The notes: generated by a model not told the origin, from the sequence alone. Positions 67-59,885 are shown, counted from the first letter of the stretch. The stretch: DNA of 64,000 bases from Candidatus Beckwithbacteria bacterium (GCA_026397255.1 JAPLVF010000013.1:9481-73480), one strand, 5' to 3'. A program made the numbers and translations.

Positions 67-1629
67 TCATATCTTATAGATCAAAAAATTCCTGTTTCTA
101 TAGACAAGTTGGAAATTAAGGGCGGGATGGTTACTGCTAACGATTAAATATTGGAAGGGGTATTGTTGCTGGATTTTGATGAAATCTGATTCACGAAATT
201 GAGTGGAGCTTTTTAAAGCTTCCATTTTATCTTGCCATAATTTGCTATATTCCCAACTATAAAAAACCGCACCCCCATCTTTGAAGTCACCCACAATACT
301 CCTTTCGGAGAAGTTCCTAAAACCGGAAATGTCCGGGGGAATCAAAAAAACCGCAGTTACCGGCGTATTGACCTTGGCCCATTTTTGCACATCCTGCCAA
401 GTATCATAATGGGCCAGACTAACCAAGGGGTTAGGGTAATAAAGATAGTCAGGCAGATTAACTTTGGGTTTAATTAAGAAAAGCATGACTAATAAATGAC
501 CGGTCAGAACCAAAATAATAAAAAGGGGCAGGTAAGAAAATTTCTTCGGCTTTAATCTAAGCAGTTGGGGTTTAACAATCAGCAGAAAGGGCAGAGACCA
601 GATGGCGGCAAAATGCCAAACAGTAAGATGATCTCCCCAAAAATAAACACCGCTAATAGCCAATAAGGTCAATAGTTTAACGAAAAACGGGCCGGTCGTG
701 ACCAGCCGGCAGCAGGCAGCGCTAAAGGCAATCAAGCTGATAATAAAAATAAAATTTATCGACCGCAAGAGTTGGAGTTGAATTAAATCTGCAACCGGAA
801 TGACGGCGCTAATAATAAAATGAAACAAGAACAACCCGGCACAGATTTTTAAAAATAATTTCATTACATAAGCGTATTTAGAAAAAAGTTTATCATTTAG
901 AACCAGCCAGGATGTACCTAACAATGATAAAAATAAACCAAAATTACCCCAACCGCTCCAACGCCAAAGATGAGGAAAACTATAAGTGCCGCGGGCACGT
1001 AAAGTCTCCAGCCAAGCTTGATTTTGCCCTAAATTTATAAAAGCAAAAAGAGGAAACTTTTTTTGTTTTTTTAGCATTAGCCACAACCACAGCAGGCCGA
1101 CGGGTATGGGAATTGACGGATTAGTGAAGGCCCCTAAAAGAATCAATAATAAACCGGAAATGAATTTCCGACGCAAAATAAAGCTTAAGGCCAGTAAAGA
1201 CAGCGCCAGACTAAGATCTCGGCTGACAAAATAAAAATGATGGGTCATGTAGCCGATTTGGGCGGCCCATTTGGGTAAAATAAATAAAAATACGGCTAAA
1301 AATCCAATCATCGATTGTCGATAGATGGTTTTGGCCAAATAAAAGACAGAGAGATAAAGCAACCATAAGCTTAACAAATAAAGAAGCAGGTGCGTCCAGG
1401 CTAAATTAAGACCGCTAATTTTGCTTAACAATACCGGAACGTAATTAAAAAGAGAATAGCTAGCATGGGGTTGGGAAAAATAATAGTCATTAGGATAAAG
1501 AGAGGGGTTGAGCAGCTTGTTTAAATAAGGCAGGTAGTGATCGTGATCCAAAACGCTAAAATAATAGCCGGTTAATAAGGGGCTGATAAGGGTGAGGACT
1601 GTGACCCAAATAATGTCTTTTGGTTTCAT
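67..1629 (-). CDS. polytopic integral membrane protein, candidate GT-C-type glycosyltransferase
   Basis: 520 aa ORF with many hydrophobic helices. Last gene of a co-directional, translationally coupled operon of glycosylation genes. No recognisable soluble catalytic motif. Confidence 0.55.
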   Translation of the reverse strand: MKPKDIIWVTVLTLISPLLTGYYFSVLDHDHYLPYLNKLLNPSLYPNDYYFSQPHASYSLFNYVPVLLSKISGLNLAWTHLLLYLLSLWLLYLSVFYLAKTIYRQSMIGFLAVFLFILPKWAAQIGYMTHHFYFVSRDLSLALSLLALSFILRRKFISGLLLILLGAFTNPSIPIPVGLLWLWLMLKKQKKFPLFAFINLGQNQAWLETLRARGTYSFPHLWRWSGWGNFGLFLSLLGTSWLVLNDKLFSKYAYVMKLFLKICAGLFLFHFIISAVIPVADLIQLQLLRSINFIFIISLIAFSAACCRLVTTGPFFVKLLTLLAISGVYFWGDHLTVWHFAAIWSLPFLLIVKPQLLRLKPKKFSYLPLFIILVLTGHLLVMLFLIKPKVNLPDYLYYPNPLVSLAHYDTWQDVQKWAKVNTPVTAVFLIPPDISGFRNFSERSIVGDFKDGGAVFYSWEYSKLWQDKMEALKSSTQFRESDFIKIQQQYPFQYLIVSSNHPALNFQLVYRNRNFLIYKI

Positions 1630-2723
1630 AATGATCTAAGTAAACTGATTTCTTTTTTAATGATGGTTTGATTATTAAATCGGTGAAGAACAGTCTGACG
1701 GGCTTGTAAGCTTATGTTTTTCGCTTTTTCTGGCTGATCAATTAAACTTTGAATTCCCTGTGTTAAACCTAAAATAGTATTTTCTACCAATAAACCATCT
1801 TTGTTGTTACTAATAATAAACTGGCTGTAAGGTTTGTCAGCGACCACGCAAGAAAGACCGCAAGCCATCGCCTCGAGCAAAGCCTTGGGGCTGCCTTCAT
1901 GAAGTGAGGCCATGATAAAAATATCACCGGACTGCAAAAGTTTTGCCACTTGATCGTGAGGCAAGGAGGGAATAATTCTCAAATTAACGGATAAATCTTT
2001 AGCCAGAGCCTTTAATTTTTCCTCTAACCTGCCGTTGCCGACAATTGTCAGCCGGATTGGTCGCTGGGTTTTTACCTGACTGACTGCCTTAATAACTGCT
2101 TCAAAGTTTTTCTGATAAACCAACCGGCCGACAGAGATGATTTCCAGATATTTTCCCGGTTTTTTCTTTTGCGGTTTAAAAAGAGCGGTATCCACCCCGT
2201 TGGGAAGCAAAACCAATTTATTTTTAGGGATTATCCGAGAGACTTTATCATACATTTCCGGGTTAGTGACAATAACCCGATCGCTAAATTTCAAGCCAAA
2301 ATATTCCGTCAATTTAATAAACGGAGGGATTAAATGATGATCTTCTTTTTTGGCAAAATAAGTATAATCATAACCGTAAGTACTGACTAAAATGGTCGGC
2401 CATAAAATTTTGGCAATTATTCCCGGCCAAATTCCTAATATTTGTTTAACTCTTAAAACCTGACACGATTTTAATTGCTTAAAGTAAATAAAAGGAATTA
2501 AAAAAGTATAAATAAATCTTGGTAGCCCGGTTTTATTAACAAATAGTTGAATATATTTGGGGAAGGGGTTAGGTTCGTCATCATAGGAAAAAACAAAGGG
2601 CCGGCCAAAGGCCGGTAAATAATATTTTAAATAATTGTTAAACCAATGAATGTCCCGACCGCTTTGACGATAGGTTTTAAAACTGTCTCCCAAGTTTAGT
2701 AGAATCCCCAACTGAGGTTTCAT
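1626..2723 (-). CDS. glycosyltransferase family 4 (GT-B, retaining)
   Basis: C-terminal EX7E-type motif HEGSPKALLEAMACGLSCVV typical of GT4. Start overlaps the upstream stop (ATGA). Confidence 0.8.
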   Translation of the reverse strand: MKPQLGILLNLGDSFKTYRQSGRDIHWFNNYLKYYLPAFGRPFVFSYDDEPNPFPKYIQLFVNKTGLPRFIYTFLIPFIYFKQLKSCQVLRVKQILGIWPGIIAKILWPTILVSTYGYDYTYFAKKEDHHLIPPFIKLTEYFGLKFSDRVIVTNPEMYDKVSRIIPKNKLVLLPNGVDTALFKPQKKKPGKYLEIISVGRLVYQKNFEAVIKAVSQVKTQRPIRLTIVGNGRLEEKLKALAKDLSVNLRIIPSLPHDQVAKLLQSGDIFIMASLHEGSPKALLEAMACGLSCVVADKPYSQFIISNNKDGLLVENTILGLTQGIQSLIDQPEKAKNISLQARQTVLHRFNNQTIIKKEISLLRSL

Positions 2724-2727
2724 AAGC

Positions 2728-3792
2728 TTATTTTAACCGCAAATGGCAACAACCGACACACTGAGTCCGGAATTTTCCCGCCTTAATCTGTTGCCGGAAC
2801 CTTCGGTAAACGGAATTATTCCACAACTTCATAAACGGAGTGTCTAAAACTGAGCCGATTTTTAAGTTAAAACAGGGGTAGACATCGCCGAAAGGAGAAA
2901 TCCTCGCCAAATGAAAGATTTTATTACAATAAAGACGGCTTAAATCGACTTTGCCGGAATAATAATCAACAACTTCTGGTAAAGACAGGCTGGGCGAGAA
3001 ACTTAATCTAACGCCAAGTTTTTCAGCGGTTATCATGGCCAACTGCAAGCTTTTTGCTAATTTTGTTTTGGGAAGTTTTAAAAGTTTCTGACAGTAATCT
3101 ATTTTTAAATGTCGTAAATTTGGATGTAAATCGTAGCCGGAACGATCTAAGGACGGGTCAAGCAGCTGAAAGTTAAGCCAGTCAACTTTTAAGTCTTTGG
3201 CCAATTTAACTGTTTGATCCAAGAGTGGATAGTTTTGCGGTAAAATTAAAGAATTCATTGTAATCGTCGGCGTTGGTTTATTCTGTTGTTGTTTTTCCAG
3301 CTGAATCAGCTTTAAACTATGCAGTGTTTTTTTAAAACTGCCTTTGCCCCGACCTTGGTCATGAATCGCCGCTGTCGGTCCGTCAAGGGAAAACATCAAG
3401 GTATCCAAATCGAAGCTAATCAAAGCTTTAATCTGCTCTTTAGTAGCGGCGGTTAAGTTGGAAATCATGCCGACACGGTGCTTTTTCTTAGCATAAGCAA
3501 CAATGGTTAAAATATCTTTATGAATTAACGGCTCACCACCAGTAAAAGACAAAGCAGTTTGAGCGGGAACCTGATCAATGACTTTTAAAATTTCCAGAGT
3601 TAATAACTGTTTCCGTCGGGTAATTTTTTTCACCACTTCTTCCTGACGCAGATAGCAAAAAGTGCAGTTTAAATTACAGCCATAAAGGATTTCAAAAACC
3701 ACATTGATGGGAAATGGCGACCAACCGTTAGGCCAAAAAGAGAAAAATTGCTCGTAAACCGGGGCTAACTTTCTTTTAATTACTTGGAGCAT
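2728..3792 (-). CDS. radical SAM enzyme with C-terminal SPASM/twitch-like Cys cluster
   Basis: CNLNCTFCY (CxxxCxxC) near the N-terminus. C-terminal cysteines YCNK...YPCF...CVGCCH suggest an auxiliary Fe-S domain. Confidence 0.8.
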   Translation of the reverse strand: MLQVIKRKLAPVYEQFFSFWPNGWSPFPINVVFEILYGCNLNCTFCYLRQEEVVKKITRRKQLLTLEILKVIDQVPAQTALSFTGGEPLIHKDILTIVAYAKKKHRVGMISNLTAATKEQIKALISFDLDTLMFSLDGPTAAIHDQGRGKGSFKKTLHSLKLIQLEKQQQNKPTPTITMNSLILPQNYPLLDQTVKLAKDLKVDWLNFQLLDPSLDRSGYDLHPNLRHLKIDYCQKLLKLPKTKLAKSLQLAMITAEKLGVRLSFSPSLSLPEVVDYYSGKVDLSRLYCNKIFHLARISPFGDVYPCFNLKIGSVLDTPFMKLWNNSVYRRFRQQIKAGKFRTQCVGCCHLRLK

Positions 3793-3881: not shown

Positions 3882-4658
3882 TCATAAGGATTTTTTAATA
3901 ACTATTCTAAACCCGGTTGATTCATTAATATTTTGGCCGGCTTTGGCTTTTTTATATAAAGCAATTTTTGAGTATAAGCGCAAAGATAATCCGCCCAATA
4001 AATCAATAAAGCCGATCCAAGGTGAATCATAAGTCACCGCTCTGAGGCTGATAATGTCAAAACCGGCTCTTTTAAGGATATTTTTAGCCTGAGCTAAAGA
4101 ATACTCAATTTTATGGTCCGGGTCGGCAAACGGGTTTAAGCCGACTTTTTTTTGCAGCTGCTTCCAGGAAGTATTGAGATTAGGAATAGCAATAAAAGCC
4201 AAACCCCGGGGCTTTAATAACCGCCGAATTGAGGCTAATAACTGATTTCGTCTAATAATGTGCTCTAAAACATCCAAGCAAAGAATTTTGTCAAATGACT
4301 GGTCTTTAAATTTTAATTTTTGCTCTAAATTAAATTGTCTAAAAACAACATTGGTAATATGCTTATCAGCGGCGGAATTTCTAGCAATGGTGAGTTGTTT
4401 TCGGTCATAATCCAAACCGATAATTTTCCGGCATTTAACGGCAGTCTTTAAAGTGTGCTGACCGTTATGACAGCCAAGGTCCAAAACCACATCCTGCCGG
4501 TTAATATCCGCCAAATACCAGAGCGGCTCGATGTTAATCAAATGTTTTGGGTGAATGGCATATTTACTTTTACCGGTAAGCTGCACCAGTCTCATGGAAA
4601 CAGCGGACAGGACTTTAGTTTTTTTTATTAACCAAACAAAAGGATAAAGTAATTTCAT
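3882..4658 (-). CDS. class I SAM-dependent methyltransferase
   Basis: Motif I VLDLGCHNGQ and motif ILCLDVLEHI of Methyltransf_11/12-like proteins. Confidence 0.7.
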   Translation of the reverse strand: MKLLYPFVWLIKKTKVLSAVSMRLVQLTGKSKYAIHPKHLINIEPLWYLADINRQDVVLDLGCHNGQHTLKTAVKCRKIIGLDYDRKQLTIARNSAADKHITNVVFRQFNLEQKLKFKDQSFDKILCLDVLEHIIRRNQLLASIRRLLKPRGLAFIAIPNLNTSWKQLQKKVGLNPFADPDHKIEYSLAQAKNILKRAGFDIISLRAVTYDSPWIGFIDLLGGLSLRLYSKIALYKKAKAGQNINESTGFRIVIKKSL

Positions 4659-5836
4659 GTTAAGCGGCGATAAAGAGCTAAATACTGGTTAATAATTTGT
4701 TGGCGGTTAAAGCGTGTTTGTAATAATTCTAAACTTTTTTGGGAAAATTGTGTTGTATTTTTCATGGCCTTAACTAATGCCTCTGCCACCTGGTCAGGTT
4801 TTTCCGGATCAACTAAATAACCATTGTCTTTCACCAGCTCCTGGTTACCACCGCGATTGGAGGCGACGATCGGTAAGCCGAAACTTAACGCTTCCAAGCC
4901 GGCGCGGGACAACGGTTCCGGCCAGCGGGAAAGAATCGCAAAGGCACTTGCCTGTTCATATAATTTCAAAGTTTGCTCATGGCTTAACTTGCCTAAATAT
5001 TTACAGTTCTTGGGAAACTCGGACTTAAAACTGGGGTTAATGTTACCGCAAAAAATAAATTGGTATTGAGGTAATTGTTCGGCGGCCTTAATTAAACAAT
5101 CCGTACCTTTGCCAAAAGACAACTTTCCTACTGATAGAATCATCCTTTTATTCTGGCTATAGCCCTGAGTTTGTCGGGGGCCATGGCCCTGAGCTTGTCG
5201 AAGGGGAGGCAAATTGTAAATCCAACTAACTTTTTTTACTCCATTATCCTGGTAGATTTTAGCTAACTGGGGCGAAACCGCAATTACTTGCTGGCAGCGG
5301 TTTAAAAACCACTTCAGTTTATACTGCCATAACTTGGCCAGAACCAGTTTCCACTTGGCCGTTCCGCCGTATCTTGACTGATATTCAGGAATCTCTTTAT
5401 TAATGTAATAGCCAAAACCACATTTTTTTTGCTGTTGGGTAAAGCATAAGGCTAAAGGGCATAAAAACTTAAAGTCGCGCACCGTCGCTACCACCGGCTT
5501 ATGGGTCAGCCAGCCAGCTAAAACTGCTCCGGGTAAAATATACTTACCGTGAACATGAATTAAGTCAATCTTTTTTTGCCTGATAGTTTTAATAATAAAA
5601 TAAGCTGAATAAAACCAGAAAAAAGGATTATTAAACCAAAGCGGCGATAAAATCCGGCCGGGTTTAATTTTTTTAGGAAAGGGGAATTTTAAATCGGGTG
5701 ATCGACCGCCTAAGTCAGGCGACAAAATAACCACTTTAATCCTGCGGCGTAGGCCTTCGGCTAAAGCGTGCAGGCTGTATTCAGCGCCGGAAACAGCATG
5801 CGGATAAGCGTATTCACTTAAAAAAATAATATTCAT
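4655..5836 (-). CDS. glycosyltransferase family 4
   Basis: RWPEPLSRAGLEALSFGLPIVAS GT4 C-terminal motif. ATGA overlap with the neighbouring gene. Confidence 0.8.
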   Translation of the reverse strand: MNIIFLSEYAYPHAVSGAEYSLHALAEGLRRRIKVVILSPDLGGRSPDLKFPFPKKIKPGRILSPLWFNNPFFWFYSAYFIIKTIRQKKIDLIHVHGKYILPGAVLAGWLTHKPVVATVRDFKFLCPLALCFTQQQKKCGFGYYINKEIPEYQSRYGGTAKWKLVLAKLWQYKLKWFLNRCQQVIAVSPQLAKIYQDNGVKKVSWIYNLPPLRQAQGHGPRQTQGYSQNKRMILSVGKLSFGKGTDCLIKAAEQLPQYQFIFCGNINPSFKSEFPKNCKYLGKLSHEQTLKLYEQASAFAILSRWPEPLSRAGLEALSFGLPIVASNRGGNQELVKDNGYLVDPEKPDQVAEALVKAMKNTTQFSQKSLELLQTRFNRQQIINQYLALYRRLT

Positions 5837-6585
5837 TTTAAAAGAGTGATAAAATTTTGTCCGCCTTTAATTCTTCCAGAACCATCAGAAACATTTTTAT
5901 AAGATGTGCCTGTGGCTAAGATTTTAAAGCCAAGTTTGCGGCAAATTTGTTTCATTTTGGAAACACGAATGACTAGGCTGGTTTGATTGACAGGAGCGGT
6001 AGTAATTTCTTTATAGCCTTTAAGGAAAAAGCGGATTTGATCCAGGGGATTTAATTTTGAAAATTTACCAAAATACAATTGAGCCACTCCGCCAACTTTA
6101 AGACAACGACGGGTTTCTTTAAGATAACTAGTTAAATTCTCATAATTTGGCAAGTGTTGAAGGACAATAAATGAATAGATAAAATCAAGACTGTCGGAAG
6201 CAACAGCAATTGAACAACCGGAGGTGGTAAGAAGTTTAAAATTTGTTTTACCCTGAGAGGTTAAAAATTTAATAACGGTGTTTTTTTCTTCATGAATGTC
6301 AATACCAACCACTTGTTTAAAATAACTACAGGCAGCATTAAGAATTCTCCCCCCGCCATAGCCTATTTCTAAAGCAATTTTTTCTTCGGGATTGTTAAGA
6401 TGTCTACAGACCGTTTGAGTGAGAATATGAAAAGTTAAATCCCAATAACCTCTCTTGATTGATTCATTAATATCTTTTGATTTATCAAACCACGCCTGAA
6501 ATGCAGCCATGCCTTTTTTTTTACTGGCTTTAATGGCTTGGCTGTATTTTTTTCTATGCTTAATTAAATCTGAAGACTGACTCAT
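5833..6585 (-). CDS. class I SAM-dependent methyltransferase
   Basis: LEIGYGGGRILN glycine-rich motif I and acidic motif II (FIVLQHL). Confidence 0.65.
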   Translation of the reverse strand: MSQSSDLIKHRKKYSQAIKASKKKGMAAFQAWFDKSKDINESIKRGYWDLTFHILTQTVCRHLNNPEEKIALEIGYGGGRILNAACSYFKQVVGIDIHEEKNTVIKFLTSQGKTNFKLLTTSGCSIAVASDSLDFIYSFIVLQHLPNYENLTSYLKETRRCLKVGGVAQLYFGKFSKLNPLDQIRFFLKGYKEITTAPVNQTSLVIRVSKMKQICRKLGFKILATGTSYKNVSDGSGRIKGGQNFITLLK

Positions 6586-7682
6586 AATTGATTAAATATC
6601 TTTAGCTGAGTTTTAATATTTTTCCTCCAAGTGAATTTATTAATAACATATTTTAAGGCTATTTTGCCCATTTTTTGCCGTAAATCCGGTGATTTAATTA
6701 ATTGAAGTATTTTTTCCACCCAATCATTAACATCCCCTGGTTTAGCTAAAAATCCTGTTTGGCCATCTTGAATAATCTCTCTTATTGAAGAATTATTATT
6801 GCCAATCACCGGGATACCACAGGCGCCGGCTTCAGTCAAAGTCATACCAAAACCTTCTTTTGAAGAAGGTAAAACCAGAATGTCAGCTAAACGGTAAAGT
6901 AATACTTTGTCAGATTCCGGAACAAAACCGGTAAATTTGACTCTATCAGTTAAACCTAAATTCTGAACCTGTAATTTTAATGATTTTTCCAATGGGCCTG
7001 TGCCGGCATAAATTAAAACTGTGTTTTTGTTGCCAATTTTGTCTAAAACTGTTAGTAAAAATGCCGGATTCTTCCGCTGTTTTAACCCACCGACAAATAA
7101 AATCACGAAATTACCTGCCAAATCCCAGTGATCAATAAGTTTTTGGGGTTTTGGACCAGGCTGGAATTCCTTGCCAACGCCATCATAAATTACAGAAATT
7201 TTTTCTTCCGGATAGTTTAATCTTGTAATAATTTCGTTTTTAGTAAAATGGCTAACGGCAATAAGGTGATCAAAATTCCTGATGACGATTTTATCAATTA
7301 AGTGATTAATACCCTCTTCCAGGTGATGATAGGTAGCGATAACCGGTACCTGAGGATAAAGTTTTTTAAAAACGCTGGCAGCCGGACCGACAAAATAAGG
7401 GTTATGGACGCGTAAAATATCAAATTTTTCTGCTTTATAAGTTTTAATTAAATACGGCAGGACAAAAGCAGAAAATACATGGGGCGGAAACATGGGTTTA
7501 ATCGGGGCATATGCTACAGTTAAGTTTTTGTGTTTCAGATATGGCCGGTTTTTGGGCAGTAAGCTGAAAACTTTAACCCCTGCCTGGCAAAGCCGGTTAA
7601 TTACTTCCCGGTCATAAACTTCCCCGCCGGAATTACTTTCCGGACTTAATCCCAGCTCTGGTGAACAAATTTTTAAACCCAT
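6582..7682 (-). CDS. glycosyltransferase family 4
   Basis: SSKEGFGMTLTEAGACGIPVIG GT4 motif. Confidence 0.8.
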   Translation of the reverse strand: MGLKICSPELGLSPESNSGGEVYDREVINRLCQAGVKVFSLLPKNRPYLKHKNLTVAYAPIKPMFPPHVFSAFVLPYLIKTYKAEKFDILRVHNPYFVGPAASVFKKLYPQVPVIATYHHLEEGINHLIDKIVIRNFDHLIAVSHFTKNEIITRLNYPEEKISVIYDGVGKEFQPGPKPQKLIDHWDLAGNFVILFVGGLKQRKNPAFLLTVLDKIGNKNTVLIYAGTGPLEKSLKLQVQNLGLTDRVKFTGFVPESDKVLLYRLADILVLPSSKEGFGMTLTEAGACGIPVIGNNNSSIREIIQDGQTGFLAKPGDVNDWVEKILQLIKSPDLRQKMGKIALKYVINKFTWRKNIKTQLKIFNQL

Positions 7683-8764: not shown

Positions 8765-8794
8765 TTTTACTTTACTTCCCGGCTCTTTTCACTT
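8765..8794 (-). repeat. boundary motif copy 1 (plus strand TTTTACTTTACTTCCCGGCTCTTTTCACTT)
   Basis: Identical 30-mer recurs at 10662-10691 and in shortened form at 12894-12918. Each copy sits at the 3' end of a minus-strand gene. Confidence 0.7.
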
Positions 8795-9448
8795 ACTTAC
8801 AGTCACGGTTAAATTCTGGCCGTCAAAGTCAAAACTGAAAGTAATCGGCTGGTCCAGATTGTTAACAATATACAGATTTCCTAAGGGGTTGGGGCTTAAA
8901 ATTCCCACACCGTATTCTTTGGGGACTTCATTAATCTGGGCAAAATTATGGTCAGACGGGCTATGGGCAGTTAAACCGGCATCTTCAGCCGCCCAATACA
9001 TGAGCGAAGCTAAGTGGCAGACGCCGTCGCCGATCAGATGGCCGTCAGACTTAAACCCTTCTGCGCCGTTAAAATGGGCATTAGTGGTTTTAACTACATT
9101 GGCCGAATAATCGGGCAAAGTCTTCTCATGGAAAGCGAATTTTTCACCCGGTTTTAAAGTAAACTGGGTTTTAAACGGCTGGTTAATCCTGTCCCAATCG
9201 ATCTGACTTTTGTCAGTCACCTGATTATCCAGATAGTATAGGGTTAAGAGAATATTATCCTTAAACACTCCGCTCACAAACTCATTATCATATCTGTTTT
9301 CCAGGTTAATACTATGGGATGATAAAACCGCATTGGACGCCCCCAAAATTTGCGGTTGGGCCAAGGCTAAATGAAGCGACAGAATCAGTTCATAAAGCAT
9401 ATTTAAGGGGATATTATACCATATTATAGGATATTTGCCAAACCCCAC
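8789..9448 (-). CDS. VanW-like domain protein
   Basis: GDGVCHLASLMYWAA resembles the GGVCQ[VS]S[TS]LYNA core remembered for VanW/YoaR domains. Confidence 0.5.
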   Translation of the reverse strand: MGFGKYPIIWYNIPLNMLYELILSLHLALAQPQILGASNAVLSSHSINLENRYDNEFVSGVFKDNILLTLYYLDNQVTDKSQIDWDRINQPFKTQFTLKPGEKFAFHEKTLPDYSANVVKTTNAHFNGAEGFKSDGHLIGDGVCHLASLMYWAAEDAGLTAHSPSDHNFAQINEVPKEYGVGILSPNPLGNLYIVNNLDQPITFSFDFDGQNLTVTVSK

Positions 9449-9468
9449 AGAATGGTTTAATCTAAAAT

Positions 9469-10080
9469 ATGACCGGAAAACTAATTGGGTTGTTTTTATT
9501 GGTACTGGGGCTAACTATAGGAGGAATATTTGCTTTCAGGCCAAAAGAAGTTAAACCAAATTTTAGTCTAAAAGTCGAAAACGGGGTGATGGGAGTTTTC
9601 CACGGCCAAGAAGTGATGCCGCCGGCAATTGACTTGGCTGCGGTTGAGCCGGAGACTCAGGTTCTGGGCGACGCCGACCCAAATGCAGAAAAACATATTT
9701 ACATTGATTTAAGTACCCAAACCCTAACCGCCTATCAGGGAGACAGTTTGTTTATGCAGGTTTTGGTTTCCACCGGAAAATGGGGCCGGACGCCGACCGG
9801 TGAATTTACGATCTGGTCCAAATTCCGGGCGACCCGCATGTCCGGCGGCTCAGGGAGCGACTATTACGACCTACCCAATGTCCCCTACGTGATGTTTTTT
9901 TCCGGCTCCGGGGTTGCCGCCGCCAAGGGCTTTTCCATGCATGGTACTTATTGGCATAATAATTTTGGCCACCCAATGAGCCATGGTTGTGTCAATATGA
10001 GGACCGTTGACGCCCAAAAACTATTTAATTGGGCCGGTATTAATGAAAAAATAACGATCTATGGTCAAGCCCCAGGCTAA
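9469..10080 (+). CDS. L,D-transpeptidase (YkuD domain) with N-terminal membrane anchor
   Basis: Catalytic segment HGTYWHNNFGHPMSHGCVNM with the invariant His...SHGC(V/I) Cys motif of L,D-transpeptidases. Hydrophobic N-terminus. Confidence 0.85.
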   Translation: MTGKLIGLFLLVLGLTIGGIFAFRPKEVKPNFSLKVENGVMGVFHGQEVMPPAIDLAAVEPETQVLGDADPNAEKHIYIDLSTQTLTAYQGDSLFMQVLVSTGKWGRTPTGEFTIWSKFRATRMSGGSGSDYYDLPNVPYVMFFSGSGVAAAKGFSMHGTYWHNNFGHPMSHGCVNMRTVDAQKLFNWAGINEKITIYGQAPG

Positions 10081-11374: not shown

Positions 11375-11986
11375 ATGAAATATGATGAGATGTTTAATAA
11401 AGTAAGGAATTTGGAATTTGATACAGAAATGTCTGTTTGTAAATCTCATGATACGGAACTTTATTTGCTTAGACCATCTGTTCTCTCCAAGAGATTTTCC
11501 ACATATAACGTAAAAAAGAATTTTCAAATATGGCTTAGAACTGTTGCAAGAAATTTTAGACCTAATCATCTTAGGGTTTTTATTGATTTAAACTTAAGGG
11601 TAAGAAGCAGACCAGATTTAAAGGAAAAAATGTTAGTTGCCTTTGATGACATTTTCTACGGTAAAGATCCTAACGAGGTAATTCAGGGTTTGAAAAAAGA
11701 AAAATTTGAACATTTTTTGAACCCAATTGAAATAATTGCTAATTTGTCACAACTTTTCATAATTGAGCAGGCTTACTCATACAACAAAGAAAGCAATTTT
11801 GACCCTCCTACGCTTTTTTACCAAGGATGGATAAGGCAAGTTTTAGATGATATTAAAGAAATTGATAATTTGTGTATGAGTATTTCTAGGGGTCAACCTG
11901 CAGCAGCAAAATATACATCGAAAGAAAATAAAAAAAGTAATAAATTCCAGGCTAAATTAAGGCCCTTGTGGTATATTGAGGCATAG
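11375..11986 (+). CDS. hypothetical protein, candidate restriction endonuclease partner
   Basis: AT-rich ORF convergent with, and overlapping by 35 bp, the DPPY DNA methyltransferase. Possible PD-(D/E)xK-like FDD...E.K segment. No direct homology recognised. Confidence 0.35.
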   Translation: MKYDEMFNKVRNLEFDTEMSVCKSHDTELYLLRPSVLSKRFSTYNVKKNFQIWLRTVARNFRPNHLRVFIDLNLRVRSRPDLKEKMLVAFDDIFYGKDPNEVIQGLKKEKFEHFLNPIEIIANLSQLFIIEQAYSYNKESNFDPPTLFYQGWIRQVLDDIKEIDNLCMSISRGQPAAAKYTSKENKKSNKFQAKLRPLWYIEA

Positions 11987-12812
11987 AATAGTTTTCTTTC
12001 ACTAATCTAAGCTGTTTTTTCTCAAGATTGGATTTTAGCTCTTCAAATCTTTGTATTGATAAATCTAAATACTGTTTTTCAGTGTCAATTCCAATAAATT
12101 TTCTTCCATATAAATAAGCGGCTAACCCCGTAGTGGAACTGCCGGTAAAAGGATCAAGGATTAAATCACCCTTTCTAGTACTGGCTAAAACTATTCTTTT
12201 AAGCAAGTCTATAGGTTTTTGAGTCGGATGTTTTCCAAATTTTTTCTCAATCGGTTTAGGCGTATTAATTGACCAAACTGATCTCATTTGCAAGTTCGCT
12301 TTTTTTAATTGGTCTTCCGGCCAATTACCATCTTTCATCAATTTATAGTTAAAGATGTGTTTACCTTCTTTGTCTTTTCTGGCCCAAATTAGGGTTTCGT
12401 GGCTAGCGGTAAAAAAACGGCAGCTTAAATTTGGAGAGGCATTCGGCTTAAACCAAGCAATATCGTTTAATATGTGAAATTTATTAATTTCTAAGGCCAG
12501 ACCGCATTGATAAATGGAGTGATAAGTTCCACTTACCCAAATAGTTCCATTGGGTTTTAAAATCTTTTTACATAGCTTTAACCATTCTCTATGAAATTCA
12601 AAATTTTTCTTTGTTCCATTACTTAAATCCCAGTCTCCTTTTTTTACACTAACCATTTTCCCGTTTTGGCAGGTGAAACTGCCGCTGGAAAGAAAATAAG
12701 GCGGGTCGGCAAAAATCATATCCACGGAATTCTCCGGAAACTGACTCAAGAGTTTTAAAGAATTACCCAAGTAAAGCTCAAAGTTTAGTTTTTCGTAGTA
12801 AGGTTTTAACAT
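11952..12812 (-). CDS. DNA methyltransferase, N6-adenine/N4-cytosine, beta-class
   Basis: Motif IV IFADPPYFL precedes motif I ILDPFTGSSTTGLAA, the order typical of beta-class amino-MTases (N4/N6 methylase domain). Confidence 0.85.
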   Translation of the reverse strand: MLKPYYEKLNFELYLGNSLKLLSQFPENSVDMIFADPPYFLSSGSFTCQNGKMVSVKKGDWDLSNGTKKNFEFHREWLKLCKKILKPNGTIWVSGTYHSIYQCGLALEINKFHILNDIAWFKPNASPNLSCRFFTASHETLIWARKDKEGKHIFNYKLMKDGNWPEDQLKKANLQMRSVWSINTPKPIEKKFGKHPTQKPIDLLKRIVLASTRKGDLILDPFTGSSTTGLAAYLYGRKFIGIDTEKQYLDLSIQRFEELKSNLEKKQLRLVKENYSMPQYTTRALI

Positions 12813-50337: not shown

Positions 50338-51081
50338 CTAATTATATCTTCCTAAAGAAGATACCAATTTAAAACAAATAAAAACAGGCTCAAAAAAATC
50401 TGTCCAGGAAAGTTTAGACACACCTGCCCGGCGGTCTTTAAAAACAATCGGAATTTCTTTAACTTTATAACCATTTTTTAAAACCCGAAAGACCGCTTCC
50501 ATAGAAATAGCCAGGCCTTTTCGGGAAAAAAGGCTAGCTGGGTTAATTGATTCCAGGGCTTTTCTCTTATATGCCTTAAAACCTGAACCCATGTCTGTTA
50601 AATGAATTCCCAAAATGAAGCGGAAAATAATTCCGGAAAGCCGACTAATTAAGGTGCGGAAAGGAGAACGATTGACCTCACTTCCACCTGGTAAAAACCG
50701 AGAACCCAAAACTACATCGATTTCTGGTTTTGATAGCTGCCGAAGCATTAGAGGAATATATTGCGGATCATGAGAAAAATCCGCATCCATTTCTATAATG
50801 GCATCTGCCTTTTGTTTTAAACAATACCTGAAGGCATCTTTGCCGGCCAAAGCCCGGCCACGCGGCGGTTGGCGGTGTAAAACACTAATTTCCTTGGGAA
50901 ATTTGACGGTTAATTTATCGGCAATTTCTCCGGTTCTGTCAGTGGAATTATCATCGATAATCGCAATATGTAAATTGGGAATTTTAAGCTGAAGAATAGT
51001 GGCAACTAAATCGGCAAGATTCCCTTCTTCATTATGGCAGGGTAAAAACAACCAAATGTTTTTAAAAAGAAATTTTGCCAT
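50338..51081 (-). CDS. GT2 polyprenol-phosphate sugar synthase (DPM1-like)
   Basis: WLFLPCHNEEGNL...IDDNSTDRT...EMDADFSHDP. Confidence 0.8.
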   Translation of the reverse strand: MAKFLFKNIWLFLPCHNEEGNLADLVATILQLKIPNLHIAIIDDNSTDRTGEIADKLTVKFPKEISVLHRQPPRGRALAGKDAFRYCLKQKADAIIEMDADFSHDPQYIPLMLRQLSKPEIDVVLGSRFLPGGSEVNRSPFRTLISRLSGIIFRFILGIHLTDMGSGFKAYKRKALESINPASLFSRKGLAISMEAVFRVLKNGYKVKEIPIVFKDRRAGVSKLSWTDFFEPVFICFKLVSSLGRYN

Positions 51082-51781
51082 TTTGATAGTCCTTGGTAAC
51101 TTGCGTTAATCTTTCCGGCGTACCCATATCCTTAGAATAACAGTCGGAATAATAGGCGTAAAGTCTTTGACCGCGGGCTAACAAACCGGGAATTAACTGC
51201 TCTTCTAAAGAAAATTCAGTTTTTCCGGGAATAAAGTCCAAAACTTGCGGTGTAAAGATATGAGTGCCGGTTTTAGCCAGCGGCTTAAATTTATCTCCCT
51301 GGTGGGGCCGGAAAAAACGTTTAATCAAAAAATTGTGATCAGACTCAACCAAATCTGAGTCAAACGGATGATCGGTCGGGTGCACTAAAAAAGTTCCCAA
51401 ACCCGCCTTTAACTGATGAAATTTAGCCATAGCGGTTAAATCAACATTGGTCATGACGTCACCGTTAAGAACAAAAAAACTGTCGTTTTTCAATAATTTT
51501 TCCGCCAGTTTTAAGGCACCGGCGCCGCCCATGATTTGGTTAATTTCACGCGAGTAATTAATGTGAACACCAAACTTATTTCCATCTTGAAAATAATCAG
51601 TAATGACTTTTGGAAAATAATGAAGATTAATAATAATGTCTTTAAAGCCGTGAAAAGAACAAAGATTAATTAAGTGTTCGAGAATTGGTTTGTCTCCGAT
51701 TTTAACCATTACCTTGGGCTGATGGTTAGTTAAGGGTTTTAATCTGGTCCCCAAGCCGGCGGCTAAAATAAAAACTTTCAT
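51062..51781 (-). CDS. sugar-1-phosphate nucleotidyltransferase, HddC/GmhD-like
   Basis: MKVFILAAGLGTRLKPLT nucleotidyltransferase signature. Placed immediately after the heptose kinase/phosphatase and isomerase genes. Confidence 0.7.
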   Translation of the reverse strand: MKVFILAAGLGTRLKPLTNHQPKVMVKIGDKPILEHLINLCSFHGFKDIIINLHYFPKVITDYFQDGNKFGVHINYSREINQIMGGAGALKLAEKLLKNDSFFVLNGDVMTNVDLTAMAKFHQLKAGLGTFLVHPTDHPFDSDLVESDHNFLIKRFFRPHQGDKFKPLAKTGTHIFTPQVLDFIPGKTEFSLEEQLIPGLLARGQRLYAYYSDCYSKDMGTPERLTQVTKDYQNGKISF

Positions 51782-53394
51782 TTATGTTTGAGAATAAACT
51801 TCACCGCCGCCAATAAATCCTGACAAGTTTCATCGGGGTGGCCGGGATAAAGAGGATCCTTGCCGGCATGACCGGTTTTAACTAAAATTGTAAAAACATT
51901 TTCTTTTTTACCCATGAGAATATCCCGGCCATTATCGCCGACCACATAAGATTTGTTTAAATCTAAATTAAACATTTCTGAAGCTCTGACAATCATACCC
52001 GAATCCGGCTTTCTCCAGGAGCATTGGCTGATGTAGTCGGGATTAAAGGCCGTCGGATGATGAGGGCAGTAAAAGAGGGCATCAATATAAGCGCTTTTTT
52101 CCCCGAGTTTTTCCAGCATATAACGATGCAGTTTCTGGACTTGGTCCTCATCACATAATCCCCGGGCAACAACAGAGGCGTTATGGTAAACAATCACCGG
52201 AATATCAGCCATGTTTAATAACTTAATTGCCTGGATTGAACCGGGAATAAACTCAAAATCTTTTAATTGGTAAAGTAAATGAGTTTCCTTATTAATCACT
52301 CCATCGCGATCCAAAAAAACAGCCCAATTTTTCTTGGGGGTAAATTTTTCTCTGATGAGAACCGGATGAAAATTATTTTCATGCTCAATTTTGGTGACCT
52401 GTAAACCTACTTCATCAAGATTAAAATTAATTATTTGAACCCCTTCGGCTTCCAGAGCGCTGATTAACTGCTTCTGTTTTTCCGGCGGGCAGAAAAAAAA
52501 CATATGACCTTCACCGCCGGCGCCCATCACCTTGCCGCCGAGCGCCCCCTGTTGGCGGGCCAAATCATAAAGAGAGTCTAACCGGTTATTGGTCGCCGCC
52601 GGGTTGGAACGTTTTTTATTCTGCCAAGACTTATTTAAAATCCCACCCAGTTTCAGCCATTTTTTCTGGAGCAAAAAACGGTGAAATTCCGCAGTGGCTG
52701 ATTTTAGGTCTAATAAGGCTTTAATTTTATTTTTTTCGGACATGCCTTTTTTCAGCTGTTTTTGCATTTCGCTGGAATGACGGGAACCGCCGGTAAAACA
52801 AAGCACTAACCAACGGTTTAGCTCGAGTTTGACTTGAGCGTTTAAGTTAATTCCCTTAACCGAAAAATTATTGTTTTTCCCGAAAGTCATCAGATTGACG
52901 CCCCCGAAAACAGCGGCAAGCTGATCTTGCTTGCCGGAAATCCATTTCAGCTCTTTTGTTTCCATTTCCCAGGCAAGAAGGGCAATTTCCTTTTTAGTTA
53001 AATTTAAAGCTAGCCATTGGTTAAAAGCACCGATAATGGCTACGGCAGCCGCTCCGGAGCTGCCTAAGCCGGCCGAATGGTTGCCCTCAAAACGGTCATA
53101 AAGATTAAAGCCGGTCGGGAGATGCTTTTTAAAATTATTTAAAATCGCATAAACTAAATCAAACTTTTTATCCTCGCCGTAACCGGGGAAAGGCTTATCA
53201 AGACTAAGTTGGCGGACTTCGCCTAAATTCTCAATAAAAATATTCCGGTCTTCCCGGGGAACTAAGGTTACCCGATGATACAAAGAAATCGCCAGGCTAA
53301 TCACTTCCCCGCCATATTGGGAAGCAAAGGGATCAACATCGGTCCCTCCCCCGATTAGACCAATCCGGGTAGGGGCCTGGGAGATAATTTTCAT
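51778..53394 (-). CDS. bifunctional D-glycero-D-manno-heptose 7-phosphate kinase (HddA-like GHMP) / D,D-heptose 1,7-bisphosphate phosphatase (GmhB)
   Basis: N-terminal half has the GHMP motif HSAGLGSSGAAAVAI. C-terminal half has VFLDRDGVIN plus CPHHP...C.WRKP zinc loop and VGD, the GmhB (HAD IIIA) signatures. Confidence 0.75.
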   Translation of the reverse strand: MKIISQAPTRIGLIGGGTDVDPFASQYGGEVISLAISLYHRVTLVPREDRNIFIENLGEVRQLSLDKPFPGYGEDKKFDLVYAILNNFKKHLPTGFNLYDRFEGNHSAGLGSSGAAAVAIIGAFNQWLALNLTKKEIALLAWEMETKELKWISGKQDQLAAVFGGVNLMTFGKNNNFSVKGINLNAQVKLELNRWLVLCFTGGSRHSSEMQKQLKKGMSEKNKIKALLDLKSATAEFHRFLLQKKWLKLGGILNKSWQNKKRSNPAATNNRLDSLYDLARQQGALGGKVMGAGGEGHMFFFCPPEKQKQLISALEAEGVQIINFNLDEVGLQVTKIEHENNFHPVLIREKFTPKKNWAVFLDRDGVINKETHLLYQLKDFEFIPGSIQAIKLLNMADIPVIVYHNASVVARGLCDEDQVQKLHRYMLEKLGEKSAYIDALFYCPHHPTAFNPDYISQCSWRKPDSGMIVRASEMFNLDLNKSYVVGDNGRDILMGKKENVFTILVKTGHAGKDPLYPGHPDETCQDLLAAVKFILKHK

Positions 53395-53996
53395 AAATTT
53401 ATTTTGGGAAAAATGGCCTGTTCAACTAAATCACAAATTATATGTAAAGCCAAAAGCTGGCCTTCTTGAATCCGCGGTGTATCCGAAGAAGGAATTTTGA
53501 CAGCGGCATCGAGCAATGGTAAGGCAATTTTGGTTTTATCACTGACTAAGCCAATTGTTTTTAGGCCGATTTTTCTGGCTGATTCCAGGGCCAAACCTAA
53601 GTTTCTCGAGTGAAAATTAGCCTCATTCAGGGAAACATCGCTGGTAGTAATAATGATTAAAACATCACCTTTTTTCCCTAAGGCTTCAACTTGTTTAGAA
53701 AAAACATAGCTAAAACCAAAGTCATTGCTGATTGAAGTTAAGTTGGAGGTATCGGTGGTCAAGGCGATTGCCGCTAAAGGACTTCTGTCCAAACGGAATT
53801 TATTAATCATTTCCGCGGCAATGTGCTGCGCCTGGGAAGCACTGCCGCCATTACCGCAAAGCAATACTTTCCCGGCTTGCTTAAATGTTTTGATAATCAT
53901 CTGCGCCGCTTGTAAAATGCCTGCTTGACAATTTTTAATCATGGCGGCGGAGACAACTGAAGCGGTTTGCAACTGATCAATTATTATTTTTGTCAT
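53391..53996 (-). CDS. gmhA: phosphoheptose isomerase (SIS domain)
   Basis: LLCGNGGSASQAQHIAAEM matches the GmhA signature GNGGSA.DAQHFAAE. Confidence 0.8.
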   Translation of the reverse strand: MTKIIIDQLQTASVVSAAMIKNCQAGILQAAQMIIKTFKQAGKVLLCGNGGSASQAQHIAAEMINKFRLDRSPLAAIALTTDTSNLTSISNDFGFSYVFSKQVEALGKKGDVLIIITTSDVSLNEANFHSRNLGLALESARKIGLKTIGLVSDKTKIALPLLDAAVKIPSSDTPRIQEGQLLALHIICDLVEQAIFPKINL

Positions 53997-57526: not shown

Positions 57527-58431
57527 AGAACGCTACCTTTCCCTAAACGGTGTAAATAAAAATCAAGGACGCCTTTTTTTTCACCGGGCCGGCCGTTTAA
57601 TAATTGTTTAAGACTTTGCCTAAGAAGGGCAAATTTTGTCCTTAAGCTGGCGTACTTAAAGCCGAACACCAGTCGATTCCGGGTAATGTAATAGTCGTGT
57701 AACTGTGAACCGGAGCCGGAACTGCCGGAGCTTTTGTGCCAAATCCGGCTTTGAGGGACAAATACTTGCCTGAAACCGGCAAGTTGCGCCCGGTGGGAAA
57801 AATCGGCATCCTCCCAATAAAGAAAGTAGGCCGGGTCGAGCAAGCCGATCTTAACAAACACCTCTTTTTTGATTAAGACACAGCAAAAATTAACAAAGTC
57901 GACTATTTTAGCTTGGTTATACTGGCCGGTATCGACTTTATCAACACCCAAATGACGGCCGAAAACTTCGTTCCAGTCAAATCGGCCGCCGGCATACCAA
58001 ATTACTTTCCCCAGCTCATCCGGCTGATAACGGTCTTTATGATACTCATAACCTTTGGCAAAGTAGACTTTGGATACGGCTAAGTCTGCTCCGCCTTGGG
58101 CGGCTTTAAATAACTGAACCAGAAATTGCCGGTCAACAATAATATCGTTATTGATCAGTAAAAAGTATTTTGCCCCCCATTTTAGGCCGCGCTGGATACC
58201 AAGGTTATTGCCGTCGGCAAAGCCGGTGTTCTGTAAGGCAGTAATCAATTTAACGTCTTTATATTTTTTCAAGGCTTTTTTTAAGGAACCGTCGGGCACC
58301 GGACTGTTATCGACCACCACAATCAGTTGCTTAACGCTTTTGGGAAGAACCGCTTGCCTGAGCGAGTCGATCGTTTCCAAAGTCATCTGGGGATTCTGGT
58401 ATTCCAAAATCACCGTGCAAAGTTTAGTCAT
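57523..58431 (-). CDS. glycosyltransferase family 2
   Basis: LCTVILEYQNPQMT...VVVDNSP GT2-like N-terminus, and a DxD-type segment WEDADFSHRAQ. Confidence 0.7.
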   Translation of the reverse strand: MTKLCTVILEYQNPQMTLETIDSLRQAVLPKSVKQLIVVVDNSPVPDGSLKKALKKYKDVKLITALQNTGFADGNNLGIQRGLKWGAKYFLLINNDIIVDRQFLVQLFKAAQGGADLAVSKVYFAKGYEYHKDRYQPDELGKVIWYAGGRFDWNEVFGRHLGVDKVDTGQYNQAKIVDFVNFCCVLIKKEVFVKIGLLDPAYFLYWEDADFSHRAQLAGFRQVFVPQSRIWHKSSGSSGSGSQLHDYYITRNRLVFGFKYASLRTKFALLRQSLKQLLNGRPGEKKGVLDFYLHRLGKGSVL

Positions 58432-59885
58432 GAATGCTTAATTATACTCCACAGCCAGTTAATATCGACGTTTAAGCGTCTCCTGTCAAAAGCAAATAAA
58501 AAGACTAAATAAATCAAGCCGCCAGAAATTCCCACCAGGAATAAACTGATTAAATTAGTGGCCAAAAAGCTTAGCTTAAACGCCAGCAGTCCGGCTATGG
58601 CGCTGGCTAAAAATGCCGGCCAAGAATGGCGGATTACTTCAACTTTGACGATTTTTCTGATGTAGTACCAAGTCAGCGGTAAAGAAACGTACAACACAAT
58701 CACCGAGCCGATCATCGCTCCGTTAAAACCAAAAAGATAAACCAAGGGAATACTGGCGCCCCAATTAACCAAAGTATAAATAATTAACAGTTTGACGGCG
58801 ATTTTGGTTCTGCCTAAAGCCCAGAAAGCATCCATAAAGGTATTGGTAATGCCGACGATAATAATCCCCAAAAGATGGATGTAAAATGCCGGCAGGGCCG
58901 GCAGCCACTTGTCAGTAAAAATAATCGTCACAATCGGCCGGGCCAAAGCCGCCAGTAAAAAGCTGGTCGGAAATAAAAATAAATTGGTAAAGCGGATGGT
59001 TTTTTCGATGGCTTTTTTTAACACTTCTTTGTTTCCCTGAATCCGTGAATAAGTGGGAAAAGTCACCCGGAAAATATCACTCATAAAAAGAATCGGCAGT
59101 TTGCTAAAAGTGAGCGCCCAGTTTAAGTAGCCGACAGCCGCCGCGCCGGAAACAGCGCCGACGAAAATCGGCATGACGGCATCTTTAATCGTGGCAATAA
59201 AACCGTTCAAGTTGTAAGGAATACCAAAACTAACCAAACGCCTGGCAATCGCTTTATCCCAGGCAAAACTGATCCGCCAAGGTGACAGCCAGAATAAAAC
59301 GATTGCCCCCAAAAAACTTCTGACCAATAAGGCCAAAATAAAACTCCAAACACCTAAACCCATATAAGCCAGAGTGACGGCAATGATTTGAAACGAGATG
59401 ACTTCGACTACTTCCGGCCAGATTAAGCGTTTAAATTGGAGTTTGCGTTCCAAGAGGATCGAGGGAATGGTTTTTAGGGAAGTCAAAAACAAGGACAGGG
59501 AAAACACCCGAAATAACCAAATTCCCTGCATCCCCAGCTGGTATTTATTGGCAAAAAACGGCGCCGTCAACCAAATTAAAGCAGTCACCGTCACTACCAG
59601 AATTTGCTGTAAAGTAAAAGTAACACTTAAGTCTTTCGGGCTTAACTTGTCTTTTTTTTGAATCAAGGCCGCACCCAAGCCCACGTCCGAGAAAAAACCA
59701 AAAAAAGTAATGATAAAACTGACGATGGCAAAAATGCCGAAAATCTCCGGCATTAAAAGCCGGGCCAAAATAATGCTGCCCAAATAGCTGATTGCTTTAA
59801 GCAAAAATTTTCTGATGGTCAGGACCATCACCCCGGAAACGGCGCGCTGACTGATTTCGTCTAAATTAAGGTCTGGTTCGAACAT
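58428..59885 (-). CDS. Wzx-like oligosaccharide flippase (MOP superfamily polysaccharide biosynthesis protein)
   Basis: 485 aa, about 12-14 TM helices. Its architecture and position at the head of a GT2/GT4 run are typical of Wzx. Confidence 0.65.
   Translation of the reverse strand: MFEPDLNLDEISQRAVSGVMVLTIRKFLLKAISYLGSIILARLLMPEIFGIFAIVSFIITFFGFFSDVGLGAALIQKKDKLSPKDLSVTFTLQQILVVTVTALIWLTAPFFANKYQLGMQGIWLFRVFSLSLFLTSLKTIPSILLERKLQFKRLIWPEVVEVISFQIIAVTLAYMGLGVWSFILALLVRSFLGAIVLFWLSPWRISFAWDKAIARRLVSFGIPYNLNGFIATIKDAVMPIFVGAVSGAAAVGYLNWALTFSKLPILFMSDIFRVTFPTYSRIQGNKEVLKKAIEKTIRFTNLFLFPTSFLLAALARPIVTIIFTDKWLPALPAFYIHLLGIIIVGITNTFMDAFWALGRTKIAVKLLIIYTLVNWGASIPLVYLFGFNGAMIGSVIVLYVSLPLTWYYIRKIVKVEVIRHSWPAFLASAIAGLLAFKLSFLATNLISLFLVGISGGLIYLVFLFAFDRRRLNVDINWLWSIIKHS

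Follow-up and report, generated by a model that had tools for sequence, protein, structure and literature searches.

To our knowledge, twitch radical S-adenosylmethionine (SAM) enzymes with sugar substrates have been described only in antibiotic pathways, namely BtrN, SpeY, HygY, NeoN and BlsE. In SPASM domains, a CX2CX5CX3C block together with a final distal cysteine ligates the auxiliary cluster Aux II and completes the ligation of Aux I. The whole SPASM signature reads CX9-15GX4C-gap-CX2CX5CX3C-gap-C and binds two auxiliary clusters, and the twitch domain is a shortened SPASM domain with one auxiliary cluster, in which a cysteine on either side of a beta-hairpin is followed by a helix and one or more C-terminal cysteines, at which the domain stops (PMC6231123). 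The twitch domain of BtrN has a [4Fe-4S] cluster whose full ligation comes from four cysteines, of which one precedes the hairpin, one follows it and two follow helix alpha2', and this cluster is proposed to oxidise the radical intermediate (PMC6231123; PMC10337720). The fully ligated auxiliary clusters of BtrN and anSME are thought to accept the electron of the substrate radical, for a net two-electron oxidation (PMC6231123). Here we analyse a radical SAM gene, rSAM, in a 64,000-nucleotide stretch of DNA from Candidatus Beckwithbacteria bacterium (GCA_026397255.1 JAPLVF010000013.1:9481-73480), referred to as the window. The source organism is a member of the Patescibacteria, or candidate phyla radiation (CPR), and the gene belongs to an operon that also encodes the GT4 glycosyltransferases GT4a and GT4b. 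We consider it fairly likely that rSAM, a predicted twitch enzyme of a GT4a-rSAM-GT4b module, would abstract hydrogen by radical chemistry from a sugar of a glycan intermediate, the likeliest outcome being a keto sugar formed via the auxiliary cluster.

Read from its sequence, rSAM is a member of the radical SAM superfamily that carries the CxxxCxxC motif, and its auxiliary domain is a twitch domain of the BtrN type with one predicted extra cluster site, not a full SPASM domain. C39, C43 and C46 are predicted to hold the SAM-cleaving [4Fe-4S] cluster, which would lie in a six-stranded partial TIM barrel. The Pfam model Radical_SAM (PF04055) matches residues 35-164 (E = 6.5e-20; 72 bits against a cut-off of 29.5) and the SPASM model (PF13186) matches residues 289-348 (E = 4.1e-9); judged from these E-values, the predicted motif set lies far beyond chance. 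The second match cannot tell a twitch from a SPASM domain because the model spans only the portion common to both. The hairpin motif of the SPASM signature is present in rSAM as C289-X12-G302-X4-C307. The second block and the final cysteine are absent; there is just CxxCC, and the C-terminus follows 5 residues on. The topology is that of a twitch domain, with the hairpin cysteine pair followed by helix 327-337 and then by C345 and C348.

The same pattern holds across the family. An exhaustive profile search gave at least 1,348 representatives (clusters at 50% identity) at E <= 1e-30, and the best 150 matches are essentially full-length alignments. The motif census covered the 141 single-domain proteins among these 150. 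CX9-15GX4C-X30-50-CxxC occurs in 138 of the 141 and CxxCC in 130 of those 138, CX2CX5CX3C was found in none of the 141 (0/141), and the median number of residues after the motif is 8. The short C-terminus of rSAM is therefore no truncation artefact, given this census, the start of GT4b 4 nucleotides (nt) downstream and the 20 close relatives that share the C-terminal end point of rSAM. All eight cysteines of rSAM are invariant across 60 diverse relatives of 23-60% identity, the invariant positions being C39, C43, C46, G85, G86, E87, S135, C289, G302, C307, G313, C345, C348 and C349.

For the C-terminal 80 residues, a profile was derived from 11 family members and compared with all PDB sequences at E <= 10, and its sole match was BtrN (4M7S/4M7T; E = 2e-6). 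The HMMER alignment places C289, C307, C345 and C348 opposite Cys169, Cys187, Cys232 and Cys235 of BtrN (chain 4m7s_A); residues 165-239 of BtrN contain only these four cysteines, all of them aligned to cysteines of rSAM. By this correspondence the four residues of rSAM would provide full ligation of a single auxiliary [4Fe-4S] cluster, as their counterparts do in BtrN. The last two BtrN ligands are matched by C345 and C348, and C349 is an additional, nearly universal cysteine. An AlphaFold model of rSAM, made from a 21-sequence alignment (mean predicted local distance difference test (pLDDT) 88.7; predicted template modelling score 0.88), reproduces the BtrN twitch layout: C289, strands 295-298 and 303-305, C307, helix 327-337 and the CxxCC tail.

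The original prediction had named a radical SAM/SPASM-type enzyme on the basis of CxxxCxxC and the C-terminal motifs YCNK, YPCF and CVGCCH. All four motifs are present, both Pfam matches are significant, and the claim of an auxiliary-cluster domain is supported by the alignment of the C-terminal cysteines with the four twitch cysteines of BtrN; the opposite outcome, in which these cysteines align with no SPASM or twitch ligands, was checked and is not what we found, since C289, C307, C345 and C348 match BtrN. The domain type has to be corrected to a five-cysteine twitch in place of a seven-cysteine SPASM, CX2CX5CX3C being missing. Of the two checks that had been proposed, structural modelling yielded a BtrN-like twitch layout with a low-confidence CxxCC tail, and the family-profile comparison gave the BtrN match for the domain, all NCBIfam families remaining below their cut-offs.

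The second line of evidence is the conservation of gene neighbourhood. The proteins of the window operon were compared by tblastn with 69 related loci, and the module was counted in loci with an rSAM ortholog at least 36% identical and a long enough flank. A GT4b ortholog lies directly downstream of rSAM in 15 of 15 distinct loci, and a GT4a ortholog lies upstream in 11 of 11; where rSAM identity is 32% or less, both GT4 orthologs are missing. Within the window, GT4a and GT4b show hardly any relationship to one another. The module extends to the archaeal DPANN group: on the Candidatus Aenigmatarchaeota chromosome CP070801.1 (L011) rSAM is 37% identical to that of the window, GT4b shows 35% identity over its whole length (E = 9e-71) and GT4a, at 28% identity (E = 3e-44), is likewise a full-length ortholog. 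Orthologs of GT4c, the first GT4 gene of the window operon, are found upstream of GT4a at 47-67% identity in the Patescibacteria loci L001, L003-L005, L010 and L022. Beyond the module, Patescibacteria loci go on with a large membrane protein and a pair of methyltransferases, and in three cases (L001, L003, L005) a Wzx flippase and a DegT aminotransferase come next; in L001 and L003-L005 a large gene without a Pfam match takes the position of the window's DUF6798 protein. DPANN loci continue with genes for a short-chain dehydrogenase/reductase (SDR), a uridine diphosphate (UDP)-glucose dehydrogenase and again an SDR.

Distant relatives also lie among sugar-modification genes. The neighbours are DegT, WbqC, a hexapeptide acetyltransferase and GT2 at one locus; a methyltransferase and GT2 at a second; GT9 and paralogous rSAM genes at a third; three paralogs with a B12-rSAM, SDR, GT2 and a carbamoyltransferase at a fourth; and a methyltransferase, DegT, GT2 and WbqC at a fifth. 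Two further observations concern the spread of these genes. Three or four paralogous twitch rSAM genes stand in tandem in L009 (5714-12249) and L014 (3753-8529), the latter with an added B12-binding rSAM, which suggests multi-step radical tailoring of a single glycan. The three-gene module is shared between the window and L011, L006, L028 and L029, that is, between CPR and DPANN, at 28-37% identity per gene, which suggests an envelope-glycan cassette transferred across domains between ultra-small symbionts.

Taken together with the domain assignment, rSAM probably edits a sugar during cell-surface glycan assembly. In the mechanism we propose, GT4a would add a sugar to a membrane-bound, probably polyprenyl-linked, intermediate, and rSAM would dock at the membrane via its amphipathic N-terminal helix. 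Residues 1-18 have the peak hydrophobic moment of the protein (0.45-0.51 against a mean of 0.23 +/- 0.11), from which we infer a peripheral membrane anchor; such a helix would suit an enzyme that acts on a lipid-linked intermediate at the membrane surface. The 5'-deoxyadenosyl radical of rSAM would take a hydrogen from a ring carbon of the sugar added by GT4a. In the likeliest course the substrate radical would pass an electron to the auxiliary cluster to give a keto sugar in the manner of BtrN, and the keto sugar could afterwards be aminated, reduced or extended by GT4b, with methyl groups added by the adjacent methyltransferases. The substrate would thus be a sugar of the glycan intermediate, probably the product of GT4a, with GT4b acting after the modification. 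We rank oxidation of an alcohol to a ketone first because of the electron-acceptor role of the fully ligated clusters in BtrN and anSME. Epimerisation, in which a cysteine would return the hydrogen as in NeoN and HygY, is a close second, and C349, kept in 130 of 138 relatives and otherwise unaccounted for, would fit it. [quoted passage not shown] In NeoN the non-ligand Cys249 returns the hydrogen atom (PMC10991966), a role that C349 could play by analogy. A decarboxylation of the BlsE kind comes third. Among the characterised structural relatives of rSAM several have sugar substrates, namely BlsE, DesII, BtrN, SpeY, AbmM and AprD4.

Several points weigh against the proposed oxidation of a glycan-intermediate sugar. 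A pure BtrN-like model leaves the near-invariant fifth cysteine, C349, unaccounted for, and the last 14 residues of the rSAM model, which bear CxxCC, have pLDDT values of just 55-64. Sequence similarity among SPASM and twitch proteins is a poor guide to function (PMC6231123). Gene order is no proof of reaction order, and rSAM might equally act on a nucleotide sugar before transfer. Finally, the SDR dehydratases and epimerases of the clusters could already supply keto sugars to the aminotransferases, and with this alternative source the link between DegT and a dehydrogenase role is only suggestive.

Table 1. Coordinates of rSAM, its motifs and the neighbouring operon genes, counted from the first letter of the window.
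Feature	Position	Strand	Details
rSAM open reading frame (ORF)	2728..3792	minus	354 amino acids (aa); extent exactly that of the original prediction
N-terminal amphipathic helix, residues 1-18, MLQVIKRKLAPVYEQFFS	3739..3792	minus	helix 2-17 in the AlphaFold 2 model
CxxxCxxC motif, CNLNCTFC, C39/C43/C46 (residues 39-46)	3655..3678	minus	predicted ligands of the SAM-binding [4Fe-4S] cluster
GGE motif, G85 G86 E87	3532..3540	minus	binding of the SAM methionine moiety; invariant in both alignments of relatives
Twitch domain, residues 285-354	2731..2940	minus	C289, beta-hairpin, C307, helices, C345-x2-C348-C349, C-terminus
C289-NKIFHLARISPFGDVYP-C307	2872..2928	minus	translation; holds YCNK and YPCF
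CVGCC, C345/C348/C349	2746..2760	minus	followed by HLRLK and the stop codon
Polytopic membrane protein	67..1629	minus	520 aa; ~10 hydrophobic segments; Pfam DUF6798 E = 6e-12; start overlaps GT4b stop
GT4b, GT4 glycosyltransferase	1626..2723	minus	Pfam Glycos_transf_1 E = 2.5e-33; starts 4 nt past rSAM stop
MT1, class I SAM methyltransferase	3882..4658	minus	Pfam Methyltransf_31/11/25
GT4a, GT4 glycosyltransferase	4655..5836	minus	Pfam matches; Cys triad C126, C131, C139
MT2, class I SAM methyltransferase	5833..6585	minus	Pfam Methyltransf_11 E = 2.5e-13; start and stop codons overlap those of both neighbours
GT4c, first GT4 glycosyltransferase of the operon	6582..7682	minus	Pfam Glycos_transf_1 E = 6.9e-45

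The features of the gene and its operon are collected in Table 1; the role of the GGE motif has been described in BlsE (PMC3715490). The operon runs on the minus strand in the order GT4c, MT2, GT4a, MT1, an 89-nt gap, rSAM, GT4b and the DUF6798 protein, and is translationally chained; the genes overlap or are spaced by 4-89 nt, with no space for a precursor-peptide gene. Scans for promoters and terminators gave counts no higher than the shuffled expectation (28 against 24.5 expected and 13 against 10.5, respectively), and operon boundaries are therefore not derivable from them. The GT4/methyltransferase setting that had been described for rSAM is borne out by the Pfam matches, with MT1 upstream and a GT4 gene downstream. 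The accompanying remark that the arrangement is non-standard stands only in part: a methyltransferase between GT4a and rSAM is found in this window only, GT4a abutting rSAM elsewhere, but the GT4a-rSAM-GT4b core recurs in Patescibacteria and DPANN and is no oddity of one genome. A separate observation concerns GT4a, whose cysteine triad RD[FY]xxxC-x4-C-x7-8-C (5420-5461, minus strand) is kept in 10 of 10 Patescibacteria and DPANN orthologs; it may be a metal site, unusual among GT4 enzymes, encoded beside the rSAM gene.

No curated NCBIfam family takes in rSAM or any of the 60 relatives of 23-60% identity. The top NCBIfam score of rSAM is that of W_rSAM_matur, the tungsten-cofactor maturase (94 bits against a cut-off of 380), AhbD scores 84 bits against 500, and the twitch domain-containing family NF033640 (N_Twi_rSAM) scores 47.9 bits against 170; for the last, the best E-value among the 60 relatives is 3.3e-30, still much weaker than a cut-off score would yield. 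Neither rSAM nor the 60 relatives approach the SPASM equivalogs W_rSAM_matur, AhbD, NirJ, MftC, PqqE and StsB. The named families AhbD/NirJ, tungsten-cofactor maturase, MftC, PqqE, sactisynthases, N_Twi_rSAM and viperin were all rejected, with scores far under the cut-offs. For prokaryotic viperin (pVip) there is a partial PADLOC match (residues 31-189 only, 68 bits) and an NCBIfam viperin_w_prok score of 58.8 against 180, and the conserved auxiliary-cluster domain and the glycan-gene setting also disfavour it. A role in anti-phage defence, considered on account of weak 'GT4-conflict' Pfam matches, was dropped when PADLOC returned only partial matches to the pVip core and to methyltransferases. 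Database entries name the members of the family only 'radical SAM protein', and their sources are Patescibacteria, Saccharimonadales, Elusimicrobiota and Omnitrophota. One relative carries a fused GT2 domain. Giant proteins of 1,000-1,900 aa with two to four radical SAM/twitch units also occur (P0086, P0065, P0071 and P0082, the first also with a GT2 domain and the last with a B12-binding domain); these may be real fusions or merged gene calls.

Four other explanations have to be weighed. An enzyme of the BlsE kind would strip the C6 carboxylate from a glycan-attached glucuronic or galacturonic acid and so turn a hexuronate into a pentose. The fold match and the UDP-glucose dehydrogenase genes that adjoin the DPANN modules speak for such a decarboxylase; we nevertheless regard it as unlikely, since identity to BlsE is 19% with the sequence match confined to the core, the C-terminal domain aligns with BtrN and not with BlsE, and neither the Patescibacteria loci nor the window ORFs scanned yielded a UDP-glucose dehydrogenase. 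It is quite unlikely that rSAM modifies a lipid, either the carrier or a glycolipid anchor made by the GT4 enzymes, in place of a sugar: the module is common to bacteria and archaea despite their differing lipids, the loci hold, as is typical for polysaccharide pathways, Wzx flippases and sugar-nucleotide enzymes, and the scores of the GT4 enzymes against glycolipid synthases are far under the cut-offs.

A peptide or protein maturase like the sactisynthases, anSME or QhpD would modify a cysteine or another residue, possibly in the GT4a cysteine triad or in a glycosylated surface protein. This is very unlikely in our estimate. There is no recognition element for peptides that are made on the ribosome and modified after translation (RiPPs), just 28 residues preceding the rSAM core; the operon has neither a small ORF nor intergenic room for a precursor peptide, and the module is without a peptidase or exporter. 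The NCBIfam maturase scores are all far under the cut-offs (for example 91 against 625 bits), and the GT4a triad is more simply explained as a structural metal site. A RiPP cluster as such was ruled out by the lack of recognition element, precursor space, protease and exporter. The original prediction had left peptide maturases and sugar enzymes side by side; the sugar-modifying alternative is now the better supported of the two and the maturase the less so. It is hardly credible, lastly, that rSAM is a full SPASM protein or a member of a named family (AhbD/NirJ haem enzymes, tungsten-cofactor maturase or viperin) that merely adjoins glycan genes. W_rSAM_matur and AhbD do give the best full-length NCBIfam alignments, PADLOC gives the partial pVip matches, and Pfam labels the C-terminal domain 'SPASM'. 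However, the scores are 4- to 6-fold under the curated cut-offs for rSAM and the 60 relatives alike, the seven-cysteine motif is missing, the pVip match covers only the core, and the link to GT4a and GT4b does not vary. The failed cut-offs, with the absence of CX2CX5CX3C, already largely refute it.

The remainder of the window holds further envelope-related genes. A very large glycosylation island at ~19600-63800 encodes at least seven PMT_2-type GT-C proteins, ~10 GT2 and five GT4 enzymes, four SDR epimerases/dehydratases, a Wzx flippase (58428-59885) and several proteins of 440-560 aa without a Pfam match, and has matches to DUF2079, YfhO (weak), EpsG (under the Pfam cut-off) and PIG-V (weak). 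At 51062-53996 on the minus strand a SIS-domain protein (GmhA-like), a fused GHMP kinase and HAD phosphatase, and a nucleotidyltransferase stand in a row, the set expected of a nucleoside diphosphate-glycero-manno-heptose pathway, here in a CPR genome. The gene at 8789-9448 on the minus strand, for a VanW-like protein (Pfam E = 3.9e-10), is divergent from a gene at 9469-10080 on the plus strand whose product has a motif like that of L,D-transpeptidases, HGTYWH...SHGCVNM, recognised by reading the sequence only; the two are a putative pair of peptidoglycan-remodelling genes (8789-10080) adjoining the glycan operon. At 11952-12812 on the minus strand a 286-aa protein has a DPPY motif (FADPPYF), typical of N6-adenine/N4-cytosine DNA methyltransferases, and sits in a short stretch of lower G+C (0.34 at 12-14 kb) between two glycan regions.

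The protein class itself, twitch radical SAM enzymes, some of them acting on sugars, is already known. The rSAM family with its CxxCC signature, the fixed GT4a-rSAM-GT4b module and the distribution in CPR and DPANN appear to be uncharacterised, and our literature search gave nothing relevant on O-antigen, polysaccharide or Patescibacteria glycan clusters that include a radical SAM enzyme. CPR and DPANN organisms rely on cell-to-cell attachment to hosts, and their surface chemistry is little studied. A bolder and more tentative reading is that GT4a-rSAM-GT4b could be a self-contained cassette, exchanged between Patescibacteria and DPANN, that would rewrite a sugar on a lipid-linked intermediate in mid-assembly by oxidation, epimerisation or decarboxylation at an unactivated carbon. 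If so, it would be the first radical SAM step in the assembly of a cell-surface polysaccharide instead of an antibiotic, and the founding activity of the family, with its > 1,300 sequence clusters and a C-terminal CxxCC as its mark. The family would then carry twitch sugar chemistry into the cell-envelope glycans of CPR and DPANN, and the retention of all three genes across domains would be a clean case of envelope modules shared or transferred between episymbionts. Since the family is large, has a simple signature and lacks a curated model, one characterised member would annotate > 1,000 protein clusters.

Among the known enzymes, anSME and the other seven-cysteine SPASM proteins (4K36) differ from rSAM, which lacks CX2CX5CX3C, the final cysteine and a second auxiliary cluster site and whose setting has no sulfatase or peptide partner. 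The twitch sactisynthase SkfB (6EFN) acts on a peptide and bears a RiPP recognition element at its N-terminus, whereas rSAM has neither such an element nor a peptide gene, and SkfB binds a [2Fe-2S] cluster via CX33CXC (PMC6231123). BlsE (7VOB), which serves as cytosylglucuronate decarboxylase in blasticidin S biosynthesis, is part of a nucleoside-antibiotic pathway, is 19% identical to rSAM and has the C-terminal motif CxCxxC (PMC3715490) in contrast to CX12GX4C...CxxCC. NeoN and HygY resemble rSAM by description only, neither being among the PDB matches. BtrN (4M7T/4M7S), the 2-deoxy-scyllo-inosamine dehydrogenase of butirosin biosynthesis, differs in that rSAM shows neither overall sequence homology to it nor its compact architecture. 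No aminocyclitol context (2-deoxy-scyllo-inosose synthase, btr or neo genes) was found in the window or the related loci, where the neighbours are instead GT4, methyltransferase, Wzx, SDR and DegT genes. Like rSAM, BtrN has the equivalent four auxiliary cysteine positions and ends shortly past CxxC, and its substrate is a sugar-like alcohol.
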